Shown piece after piece: positions 1-64,000 of a stretch of 64,000 bases of DNA (position 1 is its first letter; each line of letters opens with the position of its first letter). This DNA comes from Thermoanaerobaculia bacterium (GTDB lineage Bacteria > Acidobacteriota > Thermoanaerobaculia > Multivoradales > JAGPDF01). The DNA lies in NCBI GenBank assembly GCA_963719555.1, contig CAVRCL010000005.1, forward strand, positions 201,606 through 265,605, written 5' to 3'. The translations under genes were made by a program, and so were the position numbers. The notes beneath the pieces are model-generated. The model did not search any database. It was not told the DNA's origin and saw only the letters and a list, made by a program, of their open reading frames with translations.

Positions 1-1323
1 GATCGCCGGTGCATGCAGACCGTCGAGGAGTCGTTCCGCGTCCTCCCGCTTTGCGGTGACGAAGCCCCCGCCGGCAAGGGCGGCGAGCCGATGTGCGATC
101 GCCTCGGGGGCGAACAGCAGCTCCTCGAGCTCGGCGCCGAGCTCCGCCAGATGCTCGCGCTGACGGCGGTCGAAGACCAGCACTTGCGGCCGCAGGGCGG
201 TCCACGGCGCCGCCACCCCGAGGACGGGATAGACCGCCGCCGCCTGCGCCAGGTAGGCGGTCTCTCCCGGCCCCATGATCTGCAGCGTCGTCCCGAGGAC
301 CGCGTCCTGGATCGCCGGCCGGGCGAGGACCCCGGGCGAGAGACGGCTCGGGTCGCTCTCGAGGAGCGCCAACAGGTCGTCGACCGGCTCGCTCTGCCCG
401 CGGGCCGGCGCTCCGCGCAGCTGGAAGCCGGCGGCGCCGCTCCACTCGATGCGCCGACGCGCGCCGTCGCGCATCAGGAAGAGCGGGCTCGCGCCGCGCT
501 GCGGTGCGACCTGGAGGTCGAAGCCCCTTGCTACGACGCGCTCCTCGGCAGCCAGGTAGGCTGCTTCGACCGCCGTCCGGTCCTCGATCAGGCGGCGCAG
601 GTGCGGTTTCTCGGCGAGCTTCAGCTCGGGCAGCATCGAGTCGAGCATCAGGGGCGAACGCGCGCCGAGCAGCGCCACCATCTGGCGCGCGAAGGCATCA
701 CCGAAGCGCGCCCCCGGCGCCCACCACTCGCTCAGGCGCACGCGCCATTCGCTGAAGCGTTCGTTCGGAAAGCTCTCGGCAAGGGCGGCGAAGAGAGTCT
801 CGATCTCCGCTCCCAGCGTCCGCGCGCCGACCGGGGCGAGAGGCGCCGTGTCGTCCCCCAGGGCGAGGCGGAGAAGCCCCGTCGGTGCGAGAAAGGTCGC
901 GCTCTCGACCTCGGCCCAGTCGTGATCCTCGGTCGCCATCCAGAAGAGGGCGACGGCCGGCCGGCCGGCCGCTTCGAGCGCCTCGGCGTAGCGCACCGCC
1001 GTCGCCGCCTTGACCAACGCCAGCAGGGGCCCGCCGAAGAGGCCGGTCTGTTGCCCGCCCACCACCACCGCCGTCGCCGGGTCGGCGAGCTTCGCCGCGA
1101 GCTCGGCGGCGCGCGGGTGGCCGTACGCCTGGTTGGCGCGCTTCAGGCCTTGCGCGATCGCGCGGCGGTCGACGGCAGGCGGCGCCATCTCCGGCAGCGT
1201 CCCCGGCGCCAGCAGGCGCAGCGGGGCGAGGAGATCCGCCTCCTTGCCGGCGAGCCAGGCCGCCGGCATCCCCTTCACCAGGCCGTTGGCGATGAGATCG
1301 ATCGGTTGAGCGTGGGCGACCAT
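1..1323 (-). CDS. BshC-like protein (putative bacillithiol-biosynthesis cysteine-adding enzyme family); 3' end lies beyond window start
   Basis: Minus-strand translation from ATG at 1323 reads MRRMVAHAQPIDLIANGL...VVVGGQQTGLFGGPLLALVKAATAVRYAEALE...VALFWMATEDHDWAEV, matching the GGQQ.GLFGGP and FW.A.EDHD motifs of the BshC/YllA family. The listed + ORF 13..1536 is the Arg-rich antisense frame. Confidence 0.55.
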   Translation of the reverse strand, partial: MVAHAQPIDLIANGLVKGMPAAWLAGKEADLLAPLRLLAPGTLPEMAPPAVDRRAIAQGLKRANQAYGHPRAAELAAKLADPATAVVVGGQQTGLFGGPLLALVKAATAVRYAEALEAAGRPAVALFWMATEDHDWAEVESATFLAPTGLLRLALGDDTAPLAPVGARTLGAEIETLFAALAESFPNERFSEWRVRLSEWWAPGARFGDAFARQMVALLGARSPLMLDSMLPELKLAEKPHLRRLIEDRTAVEAAYLAAEERVVARGFDLQVAPQRGASPLFLMRDGARRRIEWSGAAGFQLRGAPARGQSEPVDDLLALLESDPSRLSPGVLARPAIQDAVLGTTLQIMGPGETAYLAQAAAVYPVLGVAAPWTALRPQVLVFDRRQREHLAELGAELEELLFAPEAIAHRLAALAGGGFVTAKREDAERLLDGLHAPAI

Positions 1324-1370
1324 CCGCCGCATCCTAGCGGACGGGGGCGGCCGCACGCCGGTAGCCGGCC

Positions 1371-1481
1371 GGGGCTCGACGAAATCCCCTGCGCGCAGTG
1401 GCGGGGGGCCCCACCCTCAAGAGAAGAAACCCAGATGAGACCTGGGGTCCCGACCGAGCACAGGGGATTTCGTCGAGTCCC
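1371..1481. repeat. ~110-bp element with 17-bp perfect terminal inverted repeats (CTCGACGAAATCCCCTG / CAGGGGATTTCGTCGAG) and a nested imperfect inner IR; long-hairpin or MITE-like
   Basis: Read directly: 1375-1391 is the exact reverse complement of 1461-1477. The 69-bp spacer holds GGGGCCCCA / TGGGGTCCC. It sits in the divergent intergenic region ~50 bp upstream of the dusB start. Confidence 0.5.
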
Positions 1482-2570: not shown

Positions 2571-3011
2571 TTGCCGCAGGCCCTGGCCACCGCCGCCGAC
2601 GCCTGGGGCGCAGAGTGGAGTGGCGACAGCTCGAGGGACCGATCGAATCCAAGCGGCGGACGGCTCGTTCTGCCGGTGGTCTTCGGGCTGCGTCGCGGGG
2701 TGCTCGTCGGCCGGGTCGACTTCGAACCTGCGGGTGATGGCGCGCGCATCGCCTGGCAACTCGAGGAGAGCCACCTCGAGGTGCAGCGCGCTTCGGTCGG
2801 CGTTCTCGGTCTCGCGGTGCTGGCCCTGCTCCCGGCGCTCGCCTGGCCGTTCCAGCCCAGGCTCCTCGCCCTCCTGCCGTTCGCCGCGGTCATGGGCCTC
2901 CTCGCCTGGTGGCTGGTTCTGTCGCGCCTCGAAAACAGCGGCCCGGAGGAGTTCTTCGCCACCGTCGCCACCGCTGCCGCCGTCAGTCGCCCCACCGCAA
3001 AGCCCGACTGA
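2571..3011 (+). CDS. hypothetical small membrane protein
   Basis: 146-aa ORF with two hydrophobic helices (VGVLGLAVLALLPALAW, LLPFAAVMGLLAWWLVL), directly downstream of dus. No homology recognised. Confidence 0.3.
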   Translation: MPQALATAADAWGAEWSGDSSRDRSNPSGGRLVLPVVFGLRRGVLVGRVDFEPAGDGARIAWQLEESHLEVQRASVGVLGLAVLALLPALAWPFQPRLLALLPFAAVMGLLAWWLVLSRLENSGPEEFFATVATAAAVSRPTAKPD

Positions 3012-5656
3012 GCGGGCCTGCTTCAGGGCCGCGAGGTTCGTGCACCCGCTGCGCCGTGGCGCCCGGACCCGGCGCTGTGAGCGCTGCGCTGACGGCCTCC
3101 AAGCCGAGCGCCTTGCGGGTCGCCGCCAGCTCGTCCGGATTGTCGGGCGGGGACTTTTGCAGACCGGCAAGCGCCGCTTCGAGGAGCGGCCGCGCCTCGG
3201 CCTCGCGATGCAGCGCCAGGAGGGCGCGGCCCTGCGCGGCCTGGGCCCGCGCCAGGGTTGCCGGCGCGGGCTCCTTGGCTGACGCGAGAAGCGCGAGGGC
3301 CGCGACCGCTGCGCTCTCGGCGCCCGCCGGCTTCCCGGCAACCAGGAGGTGGTGGGCGACATCGATGCGATACCCGGCGAGCGTGCGTGGATTCCCGCGC
3401 GCTCCTTCGAGGTCCGCGGCGAGCTGCCGAAAGCTCGCCGCGGCGGCGCGGCTTCGCCGCCACGATCGAGCGCCCGGGAGCGATTGCGCAGGGCCGCAAG
3501 CGCCATCGGATGCGTCGGCCCGTCGGTTTCGACCCAGATCGCATGGGCGTGGTCGTAGGCCGCAGCCGCCGCCATAAAGGCCGCTCCGTCGACCTGAGCC
3601 GCCGCCAGGGCCGACCAGCTGTTGGCGACCATGTAGTGGCGGTCGCCCAGCTTCGCGCGCCGCAGGGCGAGGATCTCCTCGTGCTCGCGCGCGCGCTCCG
3701 CCGGATCGTCGAGCATGGAGGCGAGGTTGCTGCGCAGGCCGAGGGTCAGCAAGTGGTTCTCGCCGCGCTCGGCGCGCAGGATCGCCAGCGCCTCGTGGAA
3801 GAGAACCTTAGCCTGCTCCGCCCCCTCCACGTCGTTGCGCGCGCGGCGGAACCAGGCAAGCGCGGTGAGACTGGCGGCGATCTCGAGACGGGGCGCTTCG
3901 GGCGTCGCGCGCAGGATCGCCAGCGCGCGCTCGATCCGCCGTTCGGCCGCTTCGCCCGTGTCGAGCTGGCCGGCTGTGCCGAGGGTGCTGGCGAGGAGCA
4001 GGGGCGGCGGCGCCGGGGAACGCTCCACCCGCGCCAGGGCGTTCTCGGCCTCGGCGATCGCTCCCGCCCGATCGCCGGTGAGGTGCAGCGCGCGCGCGTA
4101 GTCGAGCTGCACCGGGATGAGCCCCAGGTCGTCCGGCGGGAGACGCGCGAGCTCGGCGTCGCGCGCCTGCTGCAGCAGTGGCAGCGCCGCGACCCAGGCG
4201 CTGCGCTCGAGCTGGATTCGACCGAGAACGTGGCGCAGCCGCGCCTGGACGTCGGGCTGATCGGCAAGCCGGTCGGCCTTCGCGCTGCCCTGGGCGATGA
4301 GCGCGGAAACGCGCACCGTGTCGAGGTCGGCACCGGCAATCGGATCGAGGCCACCGAAGAGCTCGACCATGAGGTCGACGACTGCCTGCGAGCGCCCGGC
4401 GGCGAGCGCTGCGGCCTCGCGCTCGCGCGACGCCTCGCGTGAACGCGCCACGGAGATGGCGGTCGAGAGGGCGAGGCGCGACGACCGTCGCGACGGACGC
4501 CGCGACGGCGAGCCGATGGCGCCCGACGAAGCGCCGTGCGCGGTAACCGAACGCGTCCGGGCGCGCGCGGACCGGCTCGCCGCGGAGCCAGCGTTCGACG
4601 TCGTCGGCCAGCTCCCCCGCGGAAGAGAAACGGCGCTCGGGCTCGGGGGCGAGCGCGCGCGCGATGACGGCCGAGAGATCCCGGTCGAGCCCGGTATTGG
4701 GCGGCGGGGGATGGGGGGGCTGGGGGACATGGCAGGGGCGGCGGCCGCAGCGCCGGCGCGGAGCGGTCGCCGGTCGATTCGGCCGGCAGTCGCCCGGTCA
4801 TGAGCTCGTGGAGAAGGATGCCGAGCGCCCAGACGTCGGTCGCCGTGGTCACCGGCTCGCCGCGGCGCTGTTCCGGCGCGGCGCGCTGCGGCGTCATCGG
4901 CGCGAGCTCGAGCGCACGCGTCGGTTGGGTGGCGTCGTCGCGCGGCGAGAGGAGCTTGGCGATGCCAAAGTCGAGCAGGTGCACCCGGCCGTCGGCGCTC
5001 ACCAGCACATTCGACGGCTTGAGATCGCGATGGACGACGAGATTGGCGTGCGCGAACTGCACCGCCCGGCAAAGCTCGACGAAGAGCTCCGCCCGGCGGC
5101 GCGGCGCGGCCGCGGTCTCGGCGCAAAACTGGGTGATCGGCCGGCCGTCGACATAGCGCAGCGCCAGATAGGGCCGCCCGTCGTCGGCCGTGCCGGCGTC
5201 GAGGAGAGGCACGACCGCCGGGTGCTCGAGACGGGCGAGGAGATTGCGCTCGAGCCGGAAGCGGGCGATGAGATCGGCCGAGGCGATCCCCGGCCGCAGA
5301 AGCTTGACCGCCACTTGCTGGGTGAAGGCGCCGTCGGCGCGCTCGGCGAGATAGACCTCGCCCATGCCCCCGCGGGCGAGAAAACGCACGATCTGCCACG
5401 GTCCCAGGCGGGTGCCCGCGACGACGGAGGGTGAGCTGTCGGTCATTCCCAGGCGGCTCTCGAGCTCGAGGCCGGCGGCGGTCGGCGTCGCCTCGAGCAT
5501 CGCCGCGAGCTCGGCGGCGAGTGCCGGCGCGGTGGCGCGCAGCTTCGCGACCAGCTCGCGACGCTCGGCGGGCGTCGCGTCGCGCGCCTGTTCGTGGAGC
5601 TCGGCGAGCCGGTCCCAATCGGCGGGAGCGGGGGGGCGAGGCGAGTTGTTCGTCAT
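2983..5656 (-). CDS. Ser/Thr protein kinase with transmembrane segment and C-terminal TPR repeats; interrupted by at least 3 frameshifts
   Basis: Kinase frame 5656 to ~4780 (GMGEVYLA, HRDLKPSNVL, DFGIAK, DVWALG). The next frame carries the kinase end plus TM (ADDVERWLRGEPVRARPDAFGYRARRFVGRHRLAVAASVATVV). A third frame ~4490 to ~3440 carries TPR-like repeats. A fourth frame ends ...RALRWGD* with stop at 2983-2985. The start overlaps the sigma-factor stop (ATGA). Confidence 0.8.
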
Positions 5657-6282
5657 TCGTCTGTGGACTTTCGCGCCGTTGGCGCGGCAGGCTGGACATC
5701 CTCGCCCGGCGCGGCGAGCGCGCTGCGTACCTCCTTGCGCAGCCAGGCCATGGCGGCGTCGCCGTCGCGCTGCACGGTCTTGGTCGAGACATCCAGGAGC
5801 TCGGCCGCCTCCTCGAGCGTCAGGCCACCGAAGAAGCGCAGCTCGACGACCCGCGCGGCGCGCGGCTGCACCGCTTCGAGTCGGGCGAGCGCCTCGTCGA
5901 GCGCCAGGGTCTCTTCGGCCGCCTGCGGCGAGAGAAACCCCTCGGCCGCCTCGAGCGCGACGCGCTCGGCGCCGCCGCCGCGCTTCAGCCGCTGACGCGC
6001 CCGCGCGTGATCGACCAGCACCCGCCGCATCGTCCGCGACGCGGCGGCGAAGAACTCGCCGCGGTCCTGGGCGGCGATCCGGTGCTGGTCGACCAGCCGG
6101 AGGTAGGCCTCGTGGACCAGCGCCGCGGTATCGAGGGTATGGCCGACGCGCTCGCCGCGCAGCCGCCGGCGGGCGAGCCGCCGCAGGTCGTCGTACAGCA
6201 GGGGCACGAGGCGGTCGAGCGCCTCGGGCGAGCCGTCCCGCAGCCGGCCGAGCCAGAGTGTGATCTCACCGCTCGAGTCCAT
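5653..6282 (-). CDS. RNA polymerase sigma-70 family ECF sigma factor (type associated with Ser/Thr kinases)
   Basis: Intact 209 aa: EITLWLGRLRDGSPEALDRLVPLLYDDLRRLARRRL...TLDTAALVHEAYLRL and a sigma-4 HTH (LTLEEAAELLDVSTKTVQRD). 4-nt overlap with the downstream kinase gene. Confidence 0.9.
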   Translation of the reverse strand: MDSSGEITLWLGRLRDGSPEALDRLVPLLYDDLRRLARRRLRGERVGHTLDTAALVHEAYLRLVDQHRIAAQDRGEFFAAASRTMRRVLVDHARARQRLKRGGGAERVALEAAEGFLSPQAAEETLALDEALARLEAVQPRAARVVELRFFGGLTLEEAAELLDVSTKTVQRDGDAAMAWLRKEVRSALAAPGEDVQPAAPTARKSTDE

Positions 6283-6414
6283 GTGACTGTGGAAGTTGAC
6301 GACAGATACGGGCGGATCCGCAAGCCTGGTTCACTTGCAGCCCGTCCCCGCAACGGCGGAGAGGCGTGTCCAGTTCTGTCGCCATTTGGCGCGAGAACGA
6401 CCGAAGGAGACTCA

Positions 6415-7858
6415 ATGAAAAACCGAGCATTGGGATCGCACGTGACTTTTCGCCTCGCGGCTTTCGCTCTGGCGGCGGACCGCAACGGCCGCGGCGACGA
6501 CGATGACGGTCGACTACCGACCTCGGATACCGACGCGGCGGACGGCTTCTGCTCGCTCCGCGAAGCGATCCTCGCAGCCAACTCAGACGCTGTGCGCCAG
6601 GAGTGCCCGGCGGGGGCCGGCGCCGACCGGATCGTGTTCGACCTCCGCTTGCCCGCGACCGTGACGCTCTCTGCGGATCTGCCGGCGATCACCGCGACGG
6701 TCGCGATCCGCGGGCCGGGTGCCGGTGGCTGGCGATCGACGGCCAGACGCTCTACCGGCCTGTTCGTCTTCGCCAGCGCCGACGGCGGTGACTGGTACCT
6801 GCTGGAGGACCTATCGGTCCTGCACGGCTACGCCAATACCGGACTCGGACCGGATGGGGGTGGCGCCTACGTCGGCCCGGGCGACACCGCGATCTTCTCG
6901 CGTGTCGTCGTTGCCGAGAACGTCGCCGCGAACGGCGGTGGCGGCATCGCGGTCGACGGCCTCACCGGCCTGCCCGCACAGGCGGAGATCCACGACTCCA
7001 TCCTCAGTGGAAACCTCTCCCTGGGGGCGGCCGGTGGCGGTGGTCTGCTGGTCGTAGACGACTCAGCGGTTGAAGTCATCGGGTCATCGATTATCGACAA
7101 TCGCGCCGAGGCTTCATTTGGCGCCGGCGCCGGCATGGTGATTCAGCGCAGCACTGTTGCGGTCCAGCGCTCGACCATCTCCGGCAATCGGCTCTTGGCA
7201 GCGGTGGTGGCATCTTCGTCAGTTCGAACACCGAGCACGCGGCTCTGCTCTCGCTGGTCGATTCGACGCTCTATAACAATCTTGCCGACGCCGATTTCGA
7301 TCTGGTCGGCGACGGCGGCGGGATCTTCACCACCGGTCCGGATACTCAGCTCGAGTTCGAAAACTCGATCGTCGCCGGCAACGCCGACGATGGCGCCGTC
7401 GTGAATCCTGATCTGTCCGTCAGCCCCTTCATCGTCGTGACCAGCTCCGGCTTCAATTTCATCGGCGTCAACGAGGGTGCCGCCGCCGTCTTCGCGGCCG
7501 GAAGCCCGAACGCGAACGGCGATTTCGTCGGCACGGTGCGGCGCCGATCGATCCATTGCTCGAGGCTCTGGCGCCCAACCAGGGCGCGACGCTCAGCCAC
7601 CGGCCGGTGCTCGACGCCGCGAGCCTGGTGATCGATCACGGCGCCTGCCCGGGACGCAGCGCCGACCAGCGCGGTCGCGGCGTACCGAGTACGCACCTGC
7701 GAGCCTTCGACCACCCCACGGTGCCGACGCAAGCCGCGAGCGACGGTTGCGACATCGGTGCGGTCGAGCGCGGTGCCTCCGCCGACTCGGCGGCCGAGCT
7801 CTTTCTCGACGGCTTCGAGCTCGGCCACACCCTGCGCTGGAGCGCGGAGGCGCCGTGA
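6415..7858 (+). CDS. secreted CSLREA-domain / parallel beta-helix repeat protein ending in a conserved C-terminal tail (LFLDGFELGHTLRWSAEAP); about 2 frameshifts
   Basis: GGAGA RBS then ATG at 6415. MKNRALGSHVTFRLAAFALAA signal-like N-terminus, CSLREAILAAN motif and Gly-rich beta-helix repeats. The reading frame passes through ORFs ending 7404, 7631 and 7858. Confidence 0.7.
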
Positions 7859-9461
7859 GGAGGTTGTGGCGGGCGATCCTCGCTCTCTTACGCTCGCCGC
7901 GCCCGGCAGGCGACGGGCGGAACGACCCGCGCTGGGAGCGGCGGCTGGACGAAGCGGTCGTTGCCGCACGCTGCCCGTTCTGGATACCGGCCCCCACTCC
8001 TTCTCGCCGGCTCCGGCGGCGGCGCGGCGAGCGCGACGGTCCTCACGGTCAACACGGTCGATCCGGGTCTTGCGGCGGCCGACGACGGCTGGTGCACGCT
8101 CTACGAGGCGGTCGCTTCGGCGAACACCGACACCGGCTCGGGCGCGCTGGCCGGCGAATGCGCCAGCGGCCTGGGCGACGACACGATCGCCTTCGCCGTC
8201 GCCACGCCGGCCACCTACGTCCTGAACTTCGGCCCGCTCGTGGTCACCGCGGGCCTCGTGATCGCCGGACCGGGCGCCGACCTCCTGACCCTCAACGCCC
8301 AGGGTCTCAACCGCATCTTCGTCTATTCGCCGACCGATATCCTCGCCGCCCCGACCTTCGAGGTCTCCGGACTCACCTTCACTGGCGGGTGGGCGCTCGG
8401 CGACTACAATGGCTTCGGCCCCGGGAGTGGCGGCGCCCTGCTCGCCCAGAACGGCCAGGTGTATCTTCACGACCTGGTCTTGCGCGGCAACCTCGCGCTG
8501 GATCAGGGCGCCGGGGTCTATGCCACCGCGACACTCAACGTCGAGCGCGCCACGTTCGCCGGCAACGTCAACACCGGGCCGGTGATCTTCGGCGGCGGCG
8601 GCGCCGCGATCAGCCACAACTCCGGCGGCGATCTCACCATTCGCGACAGCTCCTTCGTCGACAACAGCGCGCTCGCCAGCGATCCCGCGGGGGCACTGTT
8701 CGACCCCCACGGCGGCGCCGTGAACGCGCTCACCTTCGGAATCGTCACGATCGAGCGCTCCACCTTCGTCGGCAATCGGGCGAGCGGCGCGGGAGGGGCG
8801 ATCGGGATCGGCCTGCACCGCACCTATCCGACCGCGCTCACGACAGTGCTGCGCTTTCTCACCGTGGTCGACAACGAGGCCGACAGCGACGGCGACGGGA
8901 TCGGTGGCAATCCCGGGGTCTACACCGGCGGCAGCGGCGGCGGCATCTTCGTCGCCGATTCGCTCGGTACGACTACGATCGAGGGTTCGATCGTCGCCGG
9001 AAACCTCGACTCGGGACCCGACAAGGCGCCCGATCTCGACGGATTCGACTTCCTCTCGCTCGGCCACAACCTCGTCGGTATCCGGCGCGGCAACGCCGCA
9101 TCGACCTTCCCGGCCGGCCAGCCGAACGGAAACGACGACTGGGTCGGCACGATCGGCGCCCGCTCGCCCACGGGCTCCTGGCACTCGCCGAGAACGGCGG
9201 GCCGACCCCTCCCGTCTGCCCGATCTCGCCGCCGGCCCGAGCCTCGCCATCGATCATGGGAGCTGTCCGGGGGAGATCGCCGATCAGCGCGGCTATGCCA
9301 ATCCGGCTAGCGCGGGGCGCGCGGTCGATGAGCCGAGCGTCGTCGACGCCGACGACGGGTGCGACATCGGCGCCGTCGAGTTGGGAGCGGTCTCTCCGCA
9401 GCTCTTCAGCGACGGCTTCGAGAGCCAGGACACTTCGCTGTGGAGCGCGACGGTGCCGTAG
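7856..9461 (+). CDS. secreted CSLREA-like (GWCTLYEAVASAN) beta-helix repeat protein with the same C-terminal tail (LFSDGFESQDTSLWSATVP); N-terminus unresolved, frameshifted
   Basis: Main frame 7961..9310 (LNFGPLVVTAGLVIAGPGADLLTLNAQG..., repeated GG.G.. turns). The C-terminal frame 8904..9461 ends CDIGAVELGAVSPQLFSDGFESQDTSLWSATVP*. Paralog of the 6415..7858 gene. Confidence 0.65.
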
Positions 9462-10985: not shown

Positions 10986-11077
10986 CGCGGATCCGGCCGG
11001 AGTGAGCCGAATGCCCGGCCGGAAAGCACGTTATGGATGAGAGGCCAGCTCTCGGCCGCGGCGGAGGAGGAAACGAG

Positions 11078-12360
11078 ATGCATCAACTTCGACAAGTCGG
11101 CAGTTGGTGGGGACATGCGTCATCGGCGTTCGGCTTGTTCGGCCTGCTACTCCTACCGCAAGGCCGGCTTCGCCGGCACCGGCCGGTTGGTCTCCCGTGG
11201 GTGAACCGGGCGCCGCGGATCGACGGCCAGATCGCGGCCGGAGAATGGAACGCGGCGAAGCTCGTCGACCTGGGCGCCGGGGTCACACTCCTGATCGAGA
11301 ACGACGCCCGCACGCTCTACCTCGCCTTCCTCGACTCCGGCGATCCGAACTCGGATCCGGCGACTCAGTTCGTGCTGCTCTTCGACGACGAGGGGGGCAC
11401 TGCGCGCCGTCCTCGACGACAACCTCTCGAACGGCGCCCTCTGCCAGGCGACGCCGGATCTCGGCGAGGGCATCCTCGAATTCACCTGCGGACCAGAAGG
11501 TCACTTTACCAGCGAAGTACGCTCAGGCGGCTATGCCTGCCGCGACCGCTCAATGACCGGCGCGACAGCTTTCGTTCCGCCGCGCGGCCGGAGGGGGTGA
11601 CCTACGAGGCGGCGATGCCGCTCGATGGCCCGACGCCGCTGCAGGCGGGGCCGGGAGAGCGCTTTGGCGTCGCGTTTCGGGTCTATCGCGACGGGGGCGC
11701 TCGGTCGCCTGCCTACCGGATTGCGCGGCCTGAGCGGCCCGGCCGGACTACCGCAACCTCGTCCTCGCCTCGGGCGGCTGCAACACCGGCCCGCAGGACT
11801 TCGGCTCCGGCGACCCGCTCGTCGGATTGCCGCTCGACTGGACGAGCGAGAACACCGCCGGCGGCGGCCCGGGTTGGGTCCAGGCGCCACCCGCGCAGTT
11901 CGGCGATCCGGTCTTCTGTCAGGCCAACGATACCGGCGGTAGCGGCGGCGCGGCCTGCGTCTCCAACTACTTCTGCACGGCGCCGCGCACCGACTCGCTG
12001 CTGCGTATGCCGCTCGCCCTCGAGGGCGACCACCGCCGCCACCGTCTGCGGGCGCGCGCCGTCCTGCAGGTCGGGGGGCCGGCCGAGTACCTCGACTTCG
12101 GCATTCGCCGCCTCGACACGAGCGGCAACTCGCTGCTCTTCTGGCTCGACGAGAACCGCAACGAGACGGTCGAGCTGTGGATTCCGGTCGCCGGCAGCCC
12201 GCCGGTCGAATTCTGGTTCACCCACTCGACCTTCTCGGACGGCGGCGTCGAAGGCGGCTACGCCCAGATCGACGACGCCGAGCTCCCCTGCGGCCCGCGG
12301 ATCTTCGCCGACGGCTTCGAGTCGGGCCTGACAACCCACTGGAGCGCGGACGTGCCTTGA
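11078..12360 (+). CDS. secreted protein (DOMON/CBM9-like N-terminal region) with the same C-terminal tail (IFADGFESGLTTHWSADVP); frameshifted
   Basis: MHQLRQVGSWWGHASSAFGLFGLLLLP then PRIDGQIAAGEWNAAKLVDLGAGVTLLIENDARTLYLAF. Frames 11033.., 11531.. and 11827..12360 join to end ...PCGPRIFADGFESGLTTHWSADVP*. Confidence 0.55.
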
Positions 12361-40399: not shown

Positions 40400-40561
40400 G
40401 GACTGTCTCCTTGACCGGACACGCGCCCTTCTCGCCCGAAAAGGCTCAGCGGTTGGACCGCGAGGCCAACCGTTCGGGGTTGAACAGAGGGTGAAGTGTG
40501 CCGGAGGTCGAGCTTTTCCGCAAGGCTCGCGGCGGCGAGCGAAAGAAGGCCGGCCTGGCCT

Positions 40562-56210: not shown

Positions 56211-57737
56211 TCAACGCGTGGCCTGTTCGAGCGCCGCCATCCGGGCGATGCGCTCCTCGGCGAAGCGCGCCGCCTGCTCGCAGCAGCCGTTCATGCTGAC
56301 GCCGAAGTACGACTGGCCGGCGACGTGCAGCCCGGGCAGGTCGCGAGGCGCGCCGCGATCGTCGCCAGGCGCGCGCGCGTGGCCGACGGTGTACTGGCTG
56401 ATGCCGACCCGGTGGCGGAAGAGCCAGTGGCGCTCGGGCGCCGCTCGCCGCTCGAGCCCCATGGTCGTCGCGAGGTCGGTGCGCGCGATCGCCAGCAGCT
56501 CGTCCTCGGGCAGAGTCGACGGCCTCGGGGTCGAGGGCGCCGCCGATCATCACCCGCAGCAGGACCTTGCCCGCCGGGCGCGCGCTCGCCCGGGAAAGAC
56601 GCTCGAGTCCCACAGCGCGCCGAGGATCCGCGGCCCGGCTCTTGAGGGATCGCGCGGCACCAGGAACCCGAAGCCGTTGGGCGCCCCGGCGCCGAGCCGA
56701 GCGCCCGGGCGTGAAACGCCTGCTCGTCGTAGGCGAGCGCGAGCGACGGCGAGGGACGGCCGAAGGGATGGCGCCGAGCGGCCGCTCCGCAGCTCGTCGT
56801 CGAGCGGCGCGAGGAGCGGCGCGGCCTGCGCCGCCGGCACGGCGAGCACGACCTCGTCGGCCTCGAGCAGCTCGCCGCCGGCGAAGTCGAGCCGCCAGAG
56901 GCGTGTCGAGCCGTCGCGCCCGTCGATCGGCTGCGAGCCGCTCGAGCGCGCGCCCGCTCTCGACCGCCGGCCCGAGCGCCGCGCCGAGCGCGTCGGTGAA
57001 GGTCTGGATGCCGCCGCGGAACGAGGTCAGGCGGCCGGCCGGGCCGACCGGCCCGCCCGGGCGTTCCATCTCTGGGGCGTCCTCGCCGCGCGCGCGAAGC
57101 TTCGCGAGCTCGCGCTTCGCGCCGCGCCGCGGGCGCGCTGCTTGGCGAGCATCGCCTTCACCAGCCCGCCGTGCTCGGCCTCCATCTCGGCCATCTTCGG
57201 GAAACAGCTGGCGAGCGAGAGCTGGCGCGCGTCGCCGGCGAAGACGCCGGAGACCATCGCGCCGACCAGGACATGCGCCGCCTCGGCGCCGATCCGCCGG
57301 CGCGCGAACTCGTAGACCGTCTCGTCGCCGCCGGGGTGCTTCGCCGCGAACGGCTCGCCGAGGACCCGCAGGCGCCCGGCGAGACTCAGCACCGGACAGG
57401 TCAGAAAGCTGCCGGGCCCGCCAGGAAGGAGATGCAGGCGGCCGTTGCGGAAGAGGAAGCGGCGCGCCGCCGCGGCGTCCGACGGGCAGAGCTCGCCCGC
57501 GAGCCCGAGCCGCCGCACCAGATCGAGCGTCTCCGGGACGTTGTCGAGGAAGCCGTTCGGTCCCCACTCGACGCGGTAGCCGCCGTCGCGCTCGGTGCGC
57601 AGGTTCCCGCCGAGCCGCGGCGCGGCCTCCACCAGGCGGACCTCCAGTCCGCCGGGGACGCGCGCGGCGCGCTCGCGGAGCTCATACGCCGTGGCGAGCC
57701 CGGCGATCCCTCCGCCGACGACGACGATCCGCTTCAT
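56211..57737 (-). CDS. hemY: protoporphyrinogen oxidase (HemY type); frameshifted
   Basis: MKRIVVVGGGIAGLATAYEL (FAD Rossmann), RFLFRNGRLHLLP, and C-terminus LPGLHVAGQSYFGVSMNGCCEQAARFAEERI. Confidence 0.75.
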
Positions 57738-57779
57738 CCCGGGCTCTCCTGGCTCTCCATGCTTGTGGGCGGCGTCCGC

Positions 57780-59182
57780 TCAAACCGTGCGCGAGAAGAC
57801 CGGGCGGTTGGCTTCGCGCTTGGCTTCGAGGTAGCGGTCGAACGCCATGCAGACGTTGCGCACGAAGAGGCGGCCCGCCGGCGTCACGGTGACCGCGTCG
57901 GCGTCGACCGCGACGAAACCCTCGGCCTTGACCTCGTCGAGACGACTCGAGCGCGGTCGCGAAGTAGCCGTCGAAGTCGATGCCGAAGCGCTGCCGCCAC
58001 CTCGGCCTTCGACCACCCGGAAGTTGCACATCAGCTGGCGGATGACGTACTGCCGGATGCGGTCGTCGGCGTCGAGCCGGTAGCCGCGCTCGATCGGCAG
58101 GCGCCCCGCGTCGAGCGCCTCGTAGTAGCGCGACAGCTTCTTCTCGTTGGCGAAGAAGCCGCCCTCGACCTCGCCGATGCCGGAGACGCCGAAGGCGATC
58201 ATGGCGTTCGACGGCTTCACCGTGTAGCCCATGAAGTTGCGGTCGAGCCGGCCGGCGCGCGCCGCGCGGGCCAGCTCGTCGCCGGGGAGCGCGAAGTGGT
58301 CCATGCCGATCGGCTCGTAGCCGGCGTCGAGGAGCTTCTCGAGCGCCGCGAAGTAGAGCGCCATCTTCGCCTCGCGATGCGGGCAGGTCGGCCTCGTCGA
58401 TCTTCTTCTGGTTGGGGCGGATCCACGGCACGAAGGCGAAGGAGTAGATCGCCAGGCGGTCGGGGCGCAGCTCGGTCACCAGGTCGAGGCTCGCGCGGAA
58501 GGTCGCCTCGGTCTGCAGCGGCAGGCCGTAGACCAGATCGAGGTTGATGCCGTCGGCGAAGCCGACGCGCCGGGCGCTCTCCATCAGCGTCTGCGTCTGC
58601 TCGAAGGTCTGGCCGCGGCCGATCGCCTCCTGCACCTCGGGGGTGAAGTCCTGCACGCCGAAGCTCAGGCGGTTGAAGCCGAGGCCGGCGAGCGCCTCGA
58701 GGTGCGCCGTCGTGGTGACCCGCGGATCGACCTCGATCGCGCGCTCGGAGTCGGGCAGGAGCTCGAAGTGGCGGGTGACCAGGGCGAAGAGCTGCTCGAG
58801 CTGCGCCGGCTCGAGGTAGGTCGGCGTTCCGCCACCCCAATGCATCTGGATCAATCCGCGGCGCTCGGGCAGGCAGGCCCGCGACGAGCTCGAGCTCGCG
58901 GCCGAGGTAGTCGAGATACTGCGCCGCGACCTCGCGCTTCGGCGTCGCGATGACGTGGCAGCCGCAGTAGCTGCAGTGCTTGGCGCAGAACGGGATGTGG
59001 ACGTAGAGGCTGAGCGGCTCGCCGGCGTGCTCGCGGTTGGCCTTCGCCAGGTGCTCGCGATAGACGCTCTCGCCGACGCCGTCGTGGAACTCGACGGCGG
59101 TCGGGTACGAGGTGTAGCGCGGGCCGGGGCGGTCGAAACGCTGCACCACTTCGGGGTCTGGAATCGCGATGCGTATCGTCAT
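57780..59182 (-). CDS. hemN: oxygen-independent coproporphyrinogen-III oxidase (radical SAM); frameshifted
   Basis: MTIRIAIPDPEVVQRFDRPGPRYTSYPTAVEF...LSLYVHIPFCAKHCSYCGC (CxxxCxxC), IQMHWGGGTPTYL, and C-terminal HemN_C region ending 57780. Confidence 0.8.
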
Positions 59183-60278
59183 GGTCTCCCCCCGGAGCCA
59201 CTCAAGCTCGCACCGGTCGCGGTGCGCTCGTGCACATGGTCGACCAGCCGCGCGACCTGGTCGGGATCGGTCGCCGGCTCGATGCCGTGGCCGAGGTTGA
59301 AGATGTGCCCCGGCGCCGTGCCGGCCTCCGCGAGCACCCGGTCGGCGAGGTGGAGGAGCTCGGCTGGCGGCGCCATGAGCGCCGCCGGGTCGAGGTTTCC
59401 CTGGACGGCGATCTCGGGGCCGAGGATAGCGCGGGCGCGGGAGAGCGGCAGCCGCCAGTCGATGCCGGCGACGTCGAGCGGCAGGCCGGGGAGCTGGTCG
59501 AGGAGGGTCGCCCCCTGGTTGGGGAAGTAGATCAGCGGCAAGCCCGAGCGGCGCGAGCCCGGCGAGCACCCGGCGGACCGCCGGCAGAGCGTGGCGGGCG
59601 TAGGTGTCGGGCGCCGAGGAGCCCGGCCCACGAGTCGAAGATCATCAGCGCCTGGGCGCCGGCCGCGGCCTGGGCGGTGAGATAGGCGATGGTCTGCGTG
59701 GCGAGCTTGTCGAGCAGACGGTCGGCCGCCGCCGGCTCCGAGAAGAGGAAGCTCTTGGCGACGAAGAAGCCCTTCGAGCCATGGCCCTCGACGAGATAGC
59801 AGAAGAGGGTGAACGGCGCGCCGGCAAAGCCGATGAGCGGCGTCTCCGGCGGCAGCGCCGCGCGCAGGCCGGCGACGGCGGCGAAGACCTGGGCGGCGTT
59901 CTCCTGCGGCGGCGGGAGCACCAGGGCGTCGATCGCCGCCGGCGTGCGCAGCGGCTTGCGGAAGACCGGCGCGGGATGGAACTCGAGTCCGAGGCCGAGC
60001 CCGTCGAGCGGCGTCAGGATGTCGCTGAACAGGATCGCGGCGTCGAGGGCGAAGCGGCGCACCGGCTGCAGCGTCACCTCGACCGCGAGCTCCGGCGTCC
60101 GCACCATGGTGAGGAAGTCGTGCTTGGCGCGCAGCGCGCGGTACTCCGGCAGGTAGCGCCCGGCCTGGCGCATGATCCAGATCGGCGTGTGCGCCGCCGC
60201 CTGGCGCTTGCAGGCGGCGAGGAACGGCGGCAGCGGCGCCGGCAGATGGTCGGGCGCGAGCCTCGGCGGTCCGCTCAC
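59179..60278 (-). CDS. hemE: uroporphyrinogen decarboxylase; one frameshift
   Basis: TPIWIMRQAGRYLPEYRALRAKHDFLTMVRTPELAVEVTLQPVRRF..DAAILFSDIL; C-terminus IFNLGHGI. The stop overlaps the hemN start (ATGA). Confidence 0.8.
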
Positions 60279-60306
60279 GTGCGCTCCTCGGCGAGCCAGC
60301 TCGCAG

Positions 60307-61281
<975 letters not shown>

Positions 61282-61296
<15 letters not shown>

Positions 61297-62104
61297 CAGC
61301 TTCCTTTCGGTAAAGCGACGATGAGCGAAGAGCGCGGCTTCGACGAGGCCGTCGAGGGTCCCGGCACGGCGATGGCGTCCGGGGTGCAGCCCGCGGCGCA
61401 CGAGCGCCCGGGCGGTCGTCGGGCCGATCACCGCGGCGGCGGCGTGCGCCAGCAGGTGGGCGAAGCCCGGCTCGCCAAACGCCTCGGCGAGGCCGTCGAC
61501 CGCCGACGGTGAGGCGAAAGTGACGACGTCGACCTCGCCGCGCGCGAGGGCCGCCGAGGCAGGCGCGCGCCGTGGCGAGGCCGGCGAAGCGGGGCGGTGC
61601 GATAGGCCTCGACGCGCACGACCTCGGCGCCGAGCGCGGCGAGGCCGCGCGGCAGCGTTTCGGCGGCGCGGTTGCTGGCCGGAAAGAGAATGCGCCGGCC
61701 GGCGCGCGTCGCCGGCCTCGGCGAAGCTCGCTACCAGGGCCGCGGCGTGGAACTCGCGCGGCAGGCGGTCGACGCGCCAGCCGCGTTCCTCGGCGGCGGC
61801 GGCGGTCGCGGCGCCGACCACGGCGAGGCGCAGCGCCGGCGGCAGAGCGGCGCGGTGCTCGGCGACCGCCTCGACAGCGTGCGCGCTGGTGAGCACCAGC
61901 CAGTCGAAGCGCGCCAGCGCGGCGAGCGCGCCGTTCGAGCGCCCGCGGGTCGGCGGGCGGCCCGACCGCCACCGCCGGCCAGTGGAGAACGCGCGCGCCG
62001 GCCGCCCGGAGGAGCGCGGCGAGCGCACCGCCCGGCGGCTCGTCGCGGGTCACCACGACGGAGAGACCGGAAAGCGGAGCGGCGAGGCCGCCGTCGGGCT
62101 TCAC
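61282..62104 (-). CDS. hemD: uroporphyrinogen-III synthase; frameshifted
   Basis: GTG start overlaps the hemC stop (GTGA). LSGLSVVVTRDEPPGGALAALLRAAGARVLHWP; FDWLVLTSAHAVEAV; VDVVTFASPSAVDGLAEAFG. Confidence 0.7.
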
Positions 62105-63107
62105 GGTTGGCCGGCTCCGGGAGTCGACTGCGAAACGGCGCTGTTCATGGCTTGGCGCCTTCGGGGCGGCGAATGCTCGGCGAGGATCGCCGCGGCGCCG
62201 CCGGCGATGAGCTCCTCGGCGAGAGCGCGACCGAGCTCCTGCGGCCGGCTCGCCGGGCCGCGGCGCTCGCCGGCGACATGCCGGCGGCCGTCGACCGAGA
62301 CCACTTCGCAAGCGAGCGTGAGCTCTTCGCCGGCGAGCGTCGCGAGGGCGCCGACCGGCACCTGGCAGCCGCCCTCGAAGCGCGGCGAGCAGGGCGCGCT
62401 CGGCAGCGGTCGTGAGATGGGTCGGCGGATGGTCGAGCCGGCGCACCCAGGCGCGGGTGGCCTCGTCGTGGGCGCGAATCTCGACCGCCACCGCCCCCTG
62501 GGCGACCGCCGGCAGGAAGCGGTCGAGCGGCAGATACTCGGTGATGTGGCGCTCGAGACCGAGCCGCTTCACCCCGGCCGCGGCGAGGATGATCGCGTCG
62601 TACTTGCCCTCCTCGACCCGGCGCACCCGCGTCGGCACGTTGCCGCGCAGGTCGACGAGCTCGAGGTCGGGGCGATAGCGCGCGAGGAGCGCCCGGCGCC
62701 GCAGACTGCTGGTGCCGACGCGCCCGCCCGCCGCCAGCGCCGCGAAACCGGCGCCGGCGCTGCCACCCTTCGCCAGCCAGACGTCGCGCGGATCCTCGCG
62801 CTCGAGCACGGCAGCGAGCCCGAGCCCTCGGGGAGCTCGGTCGGCAGGTCCTTCAGGCTGTGGACCGCGAGGTCGATGTGACCCGCGGCGAGCGCCTCCT
62901 CGATCTCCTTGGTGAAGAACGCCTTGCCGGGAACCTCGGAAAGCGGGCGATCGAGGACGTGGTCGCCTTCGGTGCGAATCTCCATGATCTGGATCTGCAG
63001 ATTGCCGTTGGCGCCGTCGAGGCGCGCGAGCAGCGCGGCGACATGATGCGCCTGCCAGAGCGCCAACTCGGAGCCGCGGGTGCCGATGCGGAGCGTTCGG
63101 TTCACGA
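62101..63107 (-). CDS. hemC: hydroxymethylbilane synthase (porphobilinogen deaminase); frameshifted
   Basis: [22 protein letters not shown]..., [46 protein letters not shown], and C-terminus [21 protein letters not shown]. Confidence 0.8.
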
Positions 63108-63822
63108 CGATTCCCCCTGGACGGTGAAGCGGTAGCCGACACCGCGCACGGTGTGGAAGTGCTGCGGCTGCTGCGGGTCGCGCTCGAAGCGCTTGCGCAG
63201 CCGGACGATGAAGTTGTCGACCGTGCGGGTCGACGGAAAGAGCTCGTAGCCCCACGCCTTGTCGAGCAGCTCCTCGCGCGAGACGACTTCGCCGACGCGC
63301 TCGGCGAGCACCTTGAGGATGACCGCCTCCTTCTGCGTCAGCGGCTGCGAGGGTGCCGTCCCAGGAGCGCCCCTGCAGGCTCCCGAAATCGAACTCGTTG
63401 CCGCCGAAGCGCAGCACCGGCGCGGCGTTGGCGGTGGCGCGCTCGTACCAGCTCCAGCGCCGCAGAATGGTCTTCACGCGCGCCAGCAGCTCCTGCAGGT
63501 GGAACGGCTTCGGCAGGTAGTCGTCGCCGCCCGCCTCGAGCCCCTGCACGCGGTCGTCGACGCTCGACTTGGCGGTGAGGAAGAGCACCGGCGTCTGCAC
63601 GCCTTCGGCGCGCGCCGTCTCGCAGATCGTGAAGCCGTCGAGCCCCGGGAGCATGACGTCGAGGAGGATGAGATCCTGCCCGCCGCGGCGGATCATCTCG
63701 AGCGCCGCGCGTCCCTCGCCGACGATCGCGACGCGGTAGCCCTCGGCTTCGAGATTCTCGGCGATGCCCTGGGCGAGATGCTCTTCGTCCTCGACCACCA
63801 GAATGGAGCGCGGCTCGGTCAT
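63102..63822 (-). CDS. two-component response regulator, OmpR/PhoB family; one frameshift
   Basis: [31 protein letters not shown]...[14 protein letters not shown]...[26 protein letters not shown] (receiver domain); winged-helix C-terminus [34 protein letters not shown]...VRGVGYRF. Confidence 0.8.
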
Positions 63823-64000
63823 GAGGCCTCCTCGCCGTCATCGGCATGGCATCCGGGGTAGCCGCCGGCCAGGCGACGGTGAACGTCGCGCCGCGACCGG
63901 GGCCGGGCGAGAGCGCGGTCACCCAGCCGCGCTCGAGCTCGACGAAGCGGCGCACGACGTAGAGGCCGAGGCCGGTGCCTTTGCTGGTGCGGCGCAGCTC
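63819..64000 (-). CDS. sensor histidine kinase, C-terminal HATPase fragment; 5' part lies beyond window end
   Basis: [45 protein letters not shown] (G2 box of HATPase_c). Directly upstream of, and overlapping, the response regulator (ATGA). Confidence 0.5.

Follow-up and report, generated by a model that had tools for sequence, protein, structure and literature searches.

We describe a sigma factor-kinase module in a 64,000-nucleotide (nt) stretch of a Thermoanaerobaculia contig (hereafter the window), in which the gene of an extracytoplasmic function (ECF) sigma factor is followed by the gene of a receptor Hanks-type Ser/Thr kinase and faces two genes for secreted beta-helix proteins on the opposite strand. 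This arrangement is probably a functional ECF43-type signalling module of an uncultured Acidobacteriota lineage, in which the kinase would activate the sigma factor and the latter would transcribe the beta-helix genes and the kinase gene. The pair type itself is already known (ECF43, with PknS and PknT), so that the module is of modest specialist interest and has no bearing on a long-standing open question. New here are a two-part sequence, motif B, found at both the kinase and the beta-helix genes, and a clade of sigma factors without either of the threonines that act as phospho-acceptors in EcfK. The module consists of the following features:

5653..6282, minus strand: ECF sigma gene, an uninterrupted open reading frame (ORF) of 209 amino acids with the region 2.2 motif D51-T52-A53-A54
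5653..5656, minus strand: ATGA stop/start overlap of the sigma and kinase genes (kinase ATG at 5656-5654, sigma TGA at 5655-5653)
2983..5656, minus strand: receptor Hanks-type Ser/Thr kinase gene, traced by three-frame translation and tblastn with intact orthologs; 890 amino acids after repair of three 1-nt insertions or deletions (indels)
4443..4515, minus strand: sole predicted membrane helix of the kinase (Kyte-Doolittle), residues 381-404 of the repaired protein
6415..7858, plus strand: BH1, the first divergent gene, for a secreted protein with a CSLREA N-terminal domain, a right-handed beta-helix and a choice-of-anchor Q domain; two frame breaks
7961..9461, plus strand: BH2, the second beta-helix gene; one frame break
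6367..6397, plus strand: beta-helix copy of motif B, TGTCCA-N16-GCGCGAGAA, ending 17 nt before the ATG at 6415, with an AAGGAG ribosome-binding sequence in between
5668..5698, minus strand: kinase copy of motif B, TGTCCA-N16-GCGCGAAAG, lying in the last 15 sigma codons and ending 11 nt before the kinase ATG

Orthologous loci were available as DNA in 11 cases (the window, L001-L004, L022, L042, L043 and L045-L047), with sigma proteins 74-82% identical; two further contigs, including that of protein P0026, were covered by gene calls only, and L022 and L043 stop inside the kinase gene. Two of these loci, L004 and L022, were added by genome and metagenome scans with the sigma protein, whose remaining matches were 42-56% identical and thus at paralog level, with upstream regions that share no motif with this clade. 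The closest named relative is a Thermoanaerobaculia metagenome-assembled genome, and a 97%-identical sigma protein (P0001) sits on a contig of 936 nt, too short to reach a kinase gene. The order sigma then kinase was found in all 11 loci with DNA and in both contigs with gene calls only. The stop/start overlap, as ATGA or GTGA, is kept in 10 of the 11 loci and would couple translation of the two genes. No anti-sigma domain is encoded in the window module or among the called neighbours of 13 related places.

The beta-helix gene is likewise a conserved neighbour. It adjoins the sigma-kinase pair in divergent orientation in nine places (the window, L001, L003, L042, L043, L045, L046, L047 and the P0026 contig), and the arrangement persists despite different outer flanks in L043, L047 and the P0026 contig. 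L002 differs in that two FG-GAP genes and another sigma-kinase pair have been inserted between the beta-helix ortholog and the sigma gene, which are now 8 kb apart; the inserted second kinase of this region (L002 548-9686) carries a PD40/Tricorn beta-propeller sensor in place of the tetratricopeptide repeats (TPR). BH2 is probably co-transcribed with BH1, and the orthologs of these two genes overlap by 4 nt in L001.

Motif B was found upstream of the beta-helix ortholog in nine of nine loci, including the displaced gene of L002, and at the kinase position in all 11, with exact matches at both positions in L001 and L002. Its spacer varies in sequence and is always 16 nt long, and its two halves are not repeats of each other; non-repeat halves at a fixed spacing would be expected of a promoter rather than of a dimeric binding site. 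In three loci outside the set from which the weight matrix was built, the top two matches per 18.5 kb were these same two positions, which scored 20-28 bits where the background did not exceed 16 bits, and 312 kb of unrelated or distantly related loci held no match of at least 16 bits. Orthologous sites share ancestry, and their conservation therefore cannot be counted as independent evidence. What does count independently is the occurrence of one specific two-part motif at two unrelated positions in a single three-gene module; the chance of an exact 13-base match within a 60-nt window, estimated from base composition, is about 2e-6. We therefore regard the kinase copy as a candidate internal promoter of the kinase gene and the beta-helix copy as a candidate promoter of the secreted-protein genes. 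Whichever factor reads motif B, the kinase gene and the secreted-protein genes share a cis-element. The initial annotation would have taken the lack of an ECF-type promoter upstream of the cluster as a refutation; this objection does not arise, as motif B, a candidate promoter with this sigma factor as its presumed reader, lies there. The same annotation had suggested that the sigma-kinase pair could regulate the surface-protein cluster, a link that is now supported by the conserved divergent adjacency and by the motif common to the beta-helix and kinase genes.

Constraint on the encoded sigma protein was considered as the reason for conservation of the kinase copy and rejected: the C-terminal tail of the sigma factor, which spans about 25 residues and contains this copy, varies in sequence and length among orthologs except for the residues that the motif encodes. 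A scan of 2800-6600 for sigma-70 consensus promoters and terminators returned nothing. A short GC-rich inverted repeat was also seen around the beta-helix copy, at 6330-6366 in the window and at the aligned positions in L001, L042, L003 and L043. Its arms differ between loci (CTCGCG-N6-CGCGAG in L001, CGCGACGTCGCG in L043), and it could be an operator or a hairpin of the 5' untranslated region.

BH1 and BH2 belong to a group of four secreted-protein genes between 6415 and 12360 that share a C-terminal tail, roughly DGFESGxTxxWS..P followed by the stop; the other two encode a DUF5122/delta-60-repeat protein (10805-9473, minus strand) and an unnamed protein (11033-12360, plus strand). BH1 and BH2 additionally carry the CSLREA N-terminal and choice-of-anchor Q domains. 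The shared tail resembles a sorting signal, and no named family matched it. A weight-matrix scan of the whole window found no further convincing copy of motif B and gives no basis for including the other genes of this tail-family cluster in the regulon. The scan returned one weak site, GGTCCA-N16-GGGCGAGAAGG at 40427-40460 on the minus strand, which at 12.8 bits does not exceed what chance would give. The ribosome-binding site and start codon (ATG, 40399) of a gene for a DUF5122 paralog (40399-38957, minus strand) follow 28 nt downstream of it; the site could add a member to the regulon or be fortuitous.

The sigma gene itself is preceded by a different conserved sequence:

6294..6323, minus strand: motif A, TTGCGG-N13-TGTCGTCAACT, ending 11 nt before the sigma ATG; candidate sigma promoter

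Across loci, motif A has the form TTGCGG-N12/13-TGTCGTCAACT, ends 9-11 nt before the sigma ATG and is invariant over 11 bases. It is present in 10 of the 11 loci as one copy per locus, with none elsewhere in the window or the orthologous loci, and none would be expected in the window by chance. Its distance to the ATG suggests a sigma transcript with a very short leader or none. Given that the reading frame across motif A is not conserved, motif A acts at the DNA level. We also considered motif A as part of a coding N-terminal extension of the sigma factor and rejected this, because L004 does not conserve the frame and the window has a stop codon in frame 16 codons upstream.

The proteins encoded by the pair resemble those of known kinase-linked sigma systems. 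The sigma protein aligns with its orthologs over its full length without gaps at 78-82% identity, and it scores 184.5 bits against PF07638 and 203.9 bits against TIGR02999 (cut-off 126), in both cases above the curated cut-off. No relative of the sigma factor with a solved structure was detectable by sequence. The repaired kinase consists of an N-terminal helical extension, a kinase domain, one membrane helix and a TPR region of about 485 residues. The Pkinase profile covers positions 3-199 in one frame and, as it is split by the first of the three frame breaks discussed below, positions 3-253 of 263 once the gene is repaired; none of the catalytic motifs VAVK, HRDLKPSN, DFG and APE is missing. 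The Kyte-Doolittle maximum over a 19-residue window is 2.23 at residue 382, with no other hydrophobic segment in the protein, and a TPR_12 match falls at residues 696-744 in the C-terminal half. The kinase would thus be a single-pass protein whose TPR region is extracytoplasmic. Orthologous kinases have the same Pfam pattern. The best match of the kinase among solved structures is PDB 9EED, PknS(1-364) of Xanthomonas citri (E = 4e-52), which aligns over kinase residues 11-357 and scores better than PknB of Mycobacterium tuberculosis. Within this match, kinase residues 11-86 pair with PknS residues 6-85 in one HMMER alignment, corresponding to an N-terminal extension of about 80 residues.

These results agree with what had been noted for this locus from the letters alone, including all of the coordinates given. 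The coordinates of an intact sigma gene at 5653..6282 hold, as also seen in the end-to-end ortholog alignment, and its 4-nt overlap with the kinase start was confirmed as the ATGA at 5653-5656. A kinase with a membrane helix and C-terminal TPR was likewise recovered, in the form of the single helix at 381-404 and the TPR_12 match, and the start of BH1 at 6415 on the plus strand bears out the divergent gene with a shared intergenic region of 132 base pairs (6283-6414). The proposal that the pair is of the kind in which a kinase replaces the anti-sigma factor is borne out by the PF07638 and TIGR02999 matches, by PknS as the best relative and by the finding of no anti-sigma gene.

A Hanks-type kinase gene beside the sigma gene is the hallmark of ECF43 (PMC13147305). 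In X. citri, PknS, a protein of 833 amino acids with a membrane helix, TPR repeats and residues 1-81 predicted to be helical, phosphorylates the ECF43 sigma factor EcfK (PMC13147305). We favour ECF43 for the window pair because of its PknS-like kinase together with the PF07638 and TIGR02999 matches, an assignment made at the level of these families. For a direct comparison with EcfK, we used the locus of Xanthomonas hortorum (L044, chromosome CP104902.1), retrieved through its PknS homolog. Its EcfK ortholog (L044:4465-5004) is a PF07638 sigma factor of 179 amino acids with the motif QATE, which overlaps the PknS ortholog gene by 4 nt and is 37% identical to the window sigma factor (E = 1e-20). 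The two systems thus share a PF07638 sigma factor, the order sigma then kinase, the 4-nt overlap and the lack of an anti-sigma gene, and PknS shares with the window kinase the helical N-terminal extension of about 80 residues, the Hanks domain, the membrane helix and the TPR region. Both have a neighbouring target related to the envelope or secretion, which is a type VI secretion system in Xanthomonas (PMC13147305) and the secreted beta-helix proteins proposed here. In the complete X. hortorum genome, the PknS ortholog (L044 5001-7510) was called as two ORFs of 398 amino acids (kinase) and 437 amino acids (TPR) with a 1-nt overlap, which could reflect a frameshift in the strain or in the assembly, or a genuine split.

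The concept proposed here is also that of EcfP/PknT of Vibrio parahaemolyticus (ECF43; PMC8999054, PMC8103513), which we compare by description. EcfP is inactive since its DAED patch is replaced, and phosphorylation by a membrane kinase encoded with it brings the negative charge back (Iyer et al., 2020, summarised in PMC8999054 and PMC8103513). The DAED patch of region 2.2 is replaced in ECF43, with QTTA as the consensus, STTA in EcfP and QATE in EcfK, and the Thr that is phosphorylated, at the third position of the motif, occurs in 88% of members (PMC13147305, PMC8999054). Activation of EcfK requires either T51 or the linker residue T106 (PMC13147305, PMC8999054), and the T106 position holds Ser, Thr, Asp or Glu in 77% of ECF43 members. 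In the window sigma factor, region 2.2 reads DTAA: two of the three acidic positions of DAED are lost and the first Asp (Asp51) is retained. Whereas the second Thr of STTA is phosphorylated in EcfP, the window protein has Ala at that position. EcfK likewise keeps one acidic residue in QATE (PMC13147305). Among 112 close homologs with a readable motif, the third position is Thr in 87, and DTAA or DTGA occurs in 22 close relatives, which include the closest relatives of the window sigma factor (most of those at 73% identity or more). Thr52 is invariant in this DTAA/DTGA clade, and position 118 is conserved as Ser or Thr. In comparison with EcfK, the window sigma factor keeps Asp51 and the neighbouring Thr52, has the C-terminal tail carrying motif B and has other predicted targets.

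Other kinase-linked groups, ECF59, ECF61, ECF62, ECF217 and ECF283 (PMC7826278, PMC8999054), also combine a sigma factor with a co-encoded Ser/Thr kinase and no anti-sigma factor, but they stem largely from Planctomycetes or Actinobacteria, and a DAED-like motif is often retained. Pairs of the RpoE-RseA type resemble the window pair in having a two-domain (sigma2, sigma4) sigma factor, a co-transcribed single-pass membrane partner and an envelope-related output; in contrast, their partner is an anti-sigma factor and not a kinase, acting by sequestration and proteolysis rather than activation. As judged by sequence comparison, the window pair is homologous to the ECF43/PknS-PknT kind and would work in the same way.

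Following this comparison, we propose that the TPR region of the kinase would sense a signal outside the cytoplasm, as its predicted topology and the likeness to PknS suggest. The kinase would then activate the sigma factor encoded just upstream, presumably by phosphorylating it, in analogy with EcfK/PknS and EcfP/PknT (PMC13147305, PMC8999054). Activated sigma factor would transcribe from TGTCCA-N16-GCGCGAGAA before the beta-helix genes and from the corresponding copy before the kinase gene, where the extra kinase produced would provide positive feedback on the sensor. Basal expression of sigma factor and kinase would come from motif A together with the overlapping stop and start codons. Within this scheme, we lean towards motif B being the promoter read by this sigma factor, with a confidence somewhat above even.

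Several observations weigh against this scheme. The phospho-acceptor T51 of EcfK (in QATE) corresponds to Ala53 of the window sigma factor (in DTAA), and T106 to Ala109 in the window and to Pro in L001, L002 and L003, in an alignment with no gaps beyond the KRGG anchor; with both EcfK phospho-sites lacking and Asp51 kept, the switch cannot operate here in its published form. AAC is present in the -35 region of many ECF promoters, and the first element of motif B is without it. Motif A, upstream of the sigma gene, differs from motif B, so that classical ECF autoregulation would make motif A the cognate promoter. The kinase reading frame also has to be restored at three frame breaks; as the closest kinase relative is only 76% identical, the call of assembly error is made from sequence comparison and does not go base by base. 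No published ECF43 promoter consensus was found in the ECF reviews or the PknS paper.

These points admit another reading of the two motifs, in which a different regulator or sigma factor reads motif B and motif A is the cognate promoter through which the sigma gene is autoregulated, with the beta-helix and kinase genes still co-regulated. We regard this as rather unlikely. In its favour, a promoter upstream of its own gene is the usual route of autoregulation for an ECF sigma factor (PMC7826278), motif A is invariant over 11 bases and contains CGTC, a common ECF -10 core, and the first element of motif B lacks AAC. Against it, motif A has a single copy per locus and none elsewhere in the window or the orthologous loci and therefore defines no regulon; motif B is found twice in a conserved three-gene module in which no other regulator gene is conserved, and its non-repeat halves, always 16 nt apart, are promoter-like. 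We also put forward, tentatively and with less than even confidence, that the switch is rewired in this Acidobacteriota clade: the sigma factor would have lost both EcfK phospho-sites and regained Asp51, so that activation would use another site or a mechanism other than charge restoration, and the circuit would contain a sigma-dependent promoter hidden in the 3' end of the sigma gene that boosts only the kinase along with the CSLREA/beta-helix set. Candidates for such a switch are the invariant Thr52, the conserved Ser118, or docking and release by the N-terminal helical domain of the kinase.

Kinase-activated sigma factors have been studied only in a few Proteobacteria. The module described here yields a concrete regulon prediction for an uncultured acidobacterial lineage, in which one motif connects the sensor kinase gene with a pair of secreted beta-helix proteins. 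A natural variant that has neither of the known phospho-acceptor sites could show how flexible the phospho-switch is.

A functional kinase is part of this proposal, and the kinase gene is interrupted in the assembled sequence. The initial annotation had reported at least three frameshifts; three-frame translation and tblastn showed exactly three frame changes:

4700..4745, minus strand: break 1, frame 2 to 0, in a C-rich segment (C5, C7 and C5 runs); the frame is restored most economically by dropping one C from the C7 run at 4713-4719
4470..4485, minus strand: break 2, frame 0 to 1, within the membrane helix; one extra base, GTCGTCGCG[C]CTCGCC, at about 4476
3430..3460, minus strand: break 3, frame 1 to 0; one base missing in the GC-repeat GAAGCCGCG^CCGCCGCGG, at about 3447

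Removal of one C from the C7 run and of the C at 4476 and addition of a base at about 3447 give a continuous protein of 890 amino acids, ending at the stop codon at 2983-2985. With five intact orthologs, the repaired kinase shares 72-75% identity. Gene calls give a single protein of 721-884 amino acids for each of its 17 closest relatives (61-76% identity), and a check of five relatives at the DNA level found single ORFs in L001-L003 and single unbroken alignments in L004 and L042. The ratio of kinase to sigma divergence is 1.23-1.45 for the window, at or below the 1.41-2.34 that intact orthologs give when compared in pairs. With no stops in the repaired frame, intact motifs and no excess divergence, the kinase gives no indication of relaxed selection.

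Breaks of this kind occur throughout the window. Analysis of third-position GC showed frame switches every 400-900 nt over the whole 64 kb. The profiles of delta-aminolevulinic acid dehydratase (positions 2-131 and 133-317), porphobilinogen deaminase (1-86 and 109-206) and uroporphyrinogen decarboxylase (5-216 and 236-345) are each split over two frames, the receiver and DNA-binding domains of an OmpR-type regulator lie in different frames, and HemN is in three pieces. BH1, BH2, the DUF5122 gene and the fourth secreted-protein gene are each spread over two or three frames when compared with intact orthologs. Altogether, 12 breaks were counted in 13.7 kb of other verified genes (hemB, hemC, hemE, hemN, the response regulator and the secreted-protein genes), or 0.88 per kb. 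At this rate, 2.35 breaks would be expected in the kinase gene and three (1.1 per kb) were observed (Poisson P = 0.42), so that no kinase-specific excess of disruptions over the local background was found; the probability of no break in the 630-nt sigma gene is 0.56. A broken kinase gene beside an intact sigma gene is just what a uniform error rate predicts.

Given that the same density of breaks is found in the hem and other neighbouring genes, the three kinase breaks are best explained, from the sequence at hand, as indel errors of assembly and not as gene decay. The initial annotation had left sequencing error and genuine decay side by side, and the window-wide break rate upholds the former and speaks against the latter. 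That the kinase is a real pseudogene, with the sigma factor orphaned or constitutively off or on, would fit three frame changes next to an intact sigma gene, but we consider it very improbable: break density is equal in essential haem-synthesis genes and in every long neighbour, the coding signature persists in every kinase fragment, as does the identity of 72-75% with intact orthologs, no catalytic motif is damaged, and the breaks fall in homopolymer or GC-repeat contexts. The rate of about 0.9 breaks per kb across all gene classes could instead be taken for massive genome-wide pseudogenisation, with real breaks everywhere. This seems more improbable still, as there are no in-frame stops, third-position GC bias and ortholog similarity persist past each break, about one break per kb in hemB, hemC, hemE and hemN would presumably be lethal in a free-living organism, and nearly all of the events appear to be single-base indels. 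Single-base indels are typical of unpolished long-read assemblies, which the whole contig resembles. For annotation, this means that the kinase should be recorded as an intact gene with assembly errors, and that every long gene of this contig needs frameshift correction before any of them is called a pseudogene.

The haem-biosynthesis genes used in this comparison form a cluster on the minus strand (57972-63837) with hemN, hemE, hemB, hemC and the OmpR-type response regulator, each gene with one or two breaks, and a protoporphyrinogen-oxidase-like gene lies with them at 57072-57758. On the other side of the module, the plus-strand gene at 2571-3011 encodes a conserved membrane protein of 146 amino acids with no family match and runs convergently to the kinase gene, with a 29-nt overlap of their 3' ends. 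In relatives, this gene is always beside dus and not beside the kinase or sigma gene. The flank of the window before it (1-2531) holds a partial bshC (1-1416, minus strand) and dus (1533-2531). In relatives (L001 15067-19729), bshC and dus are followed by a PIG-L gene (bshB-like) and a GT4 gene (bshA-like), a bacillithiol-synthesis neighbourhood.

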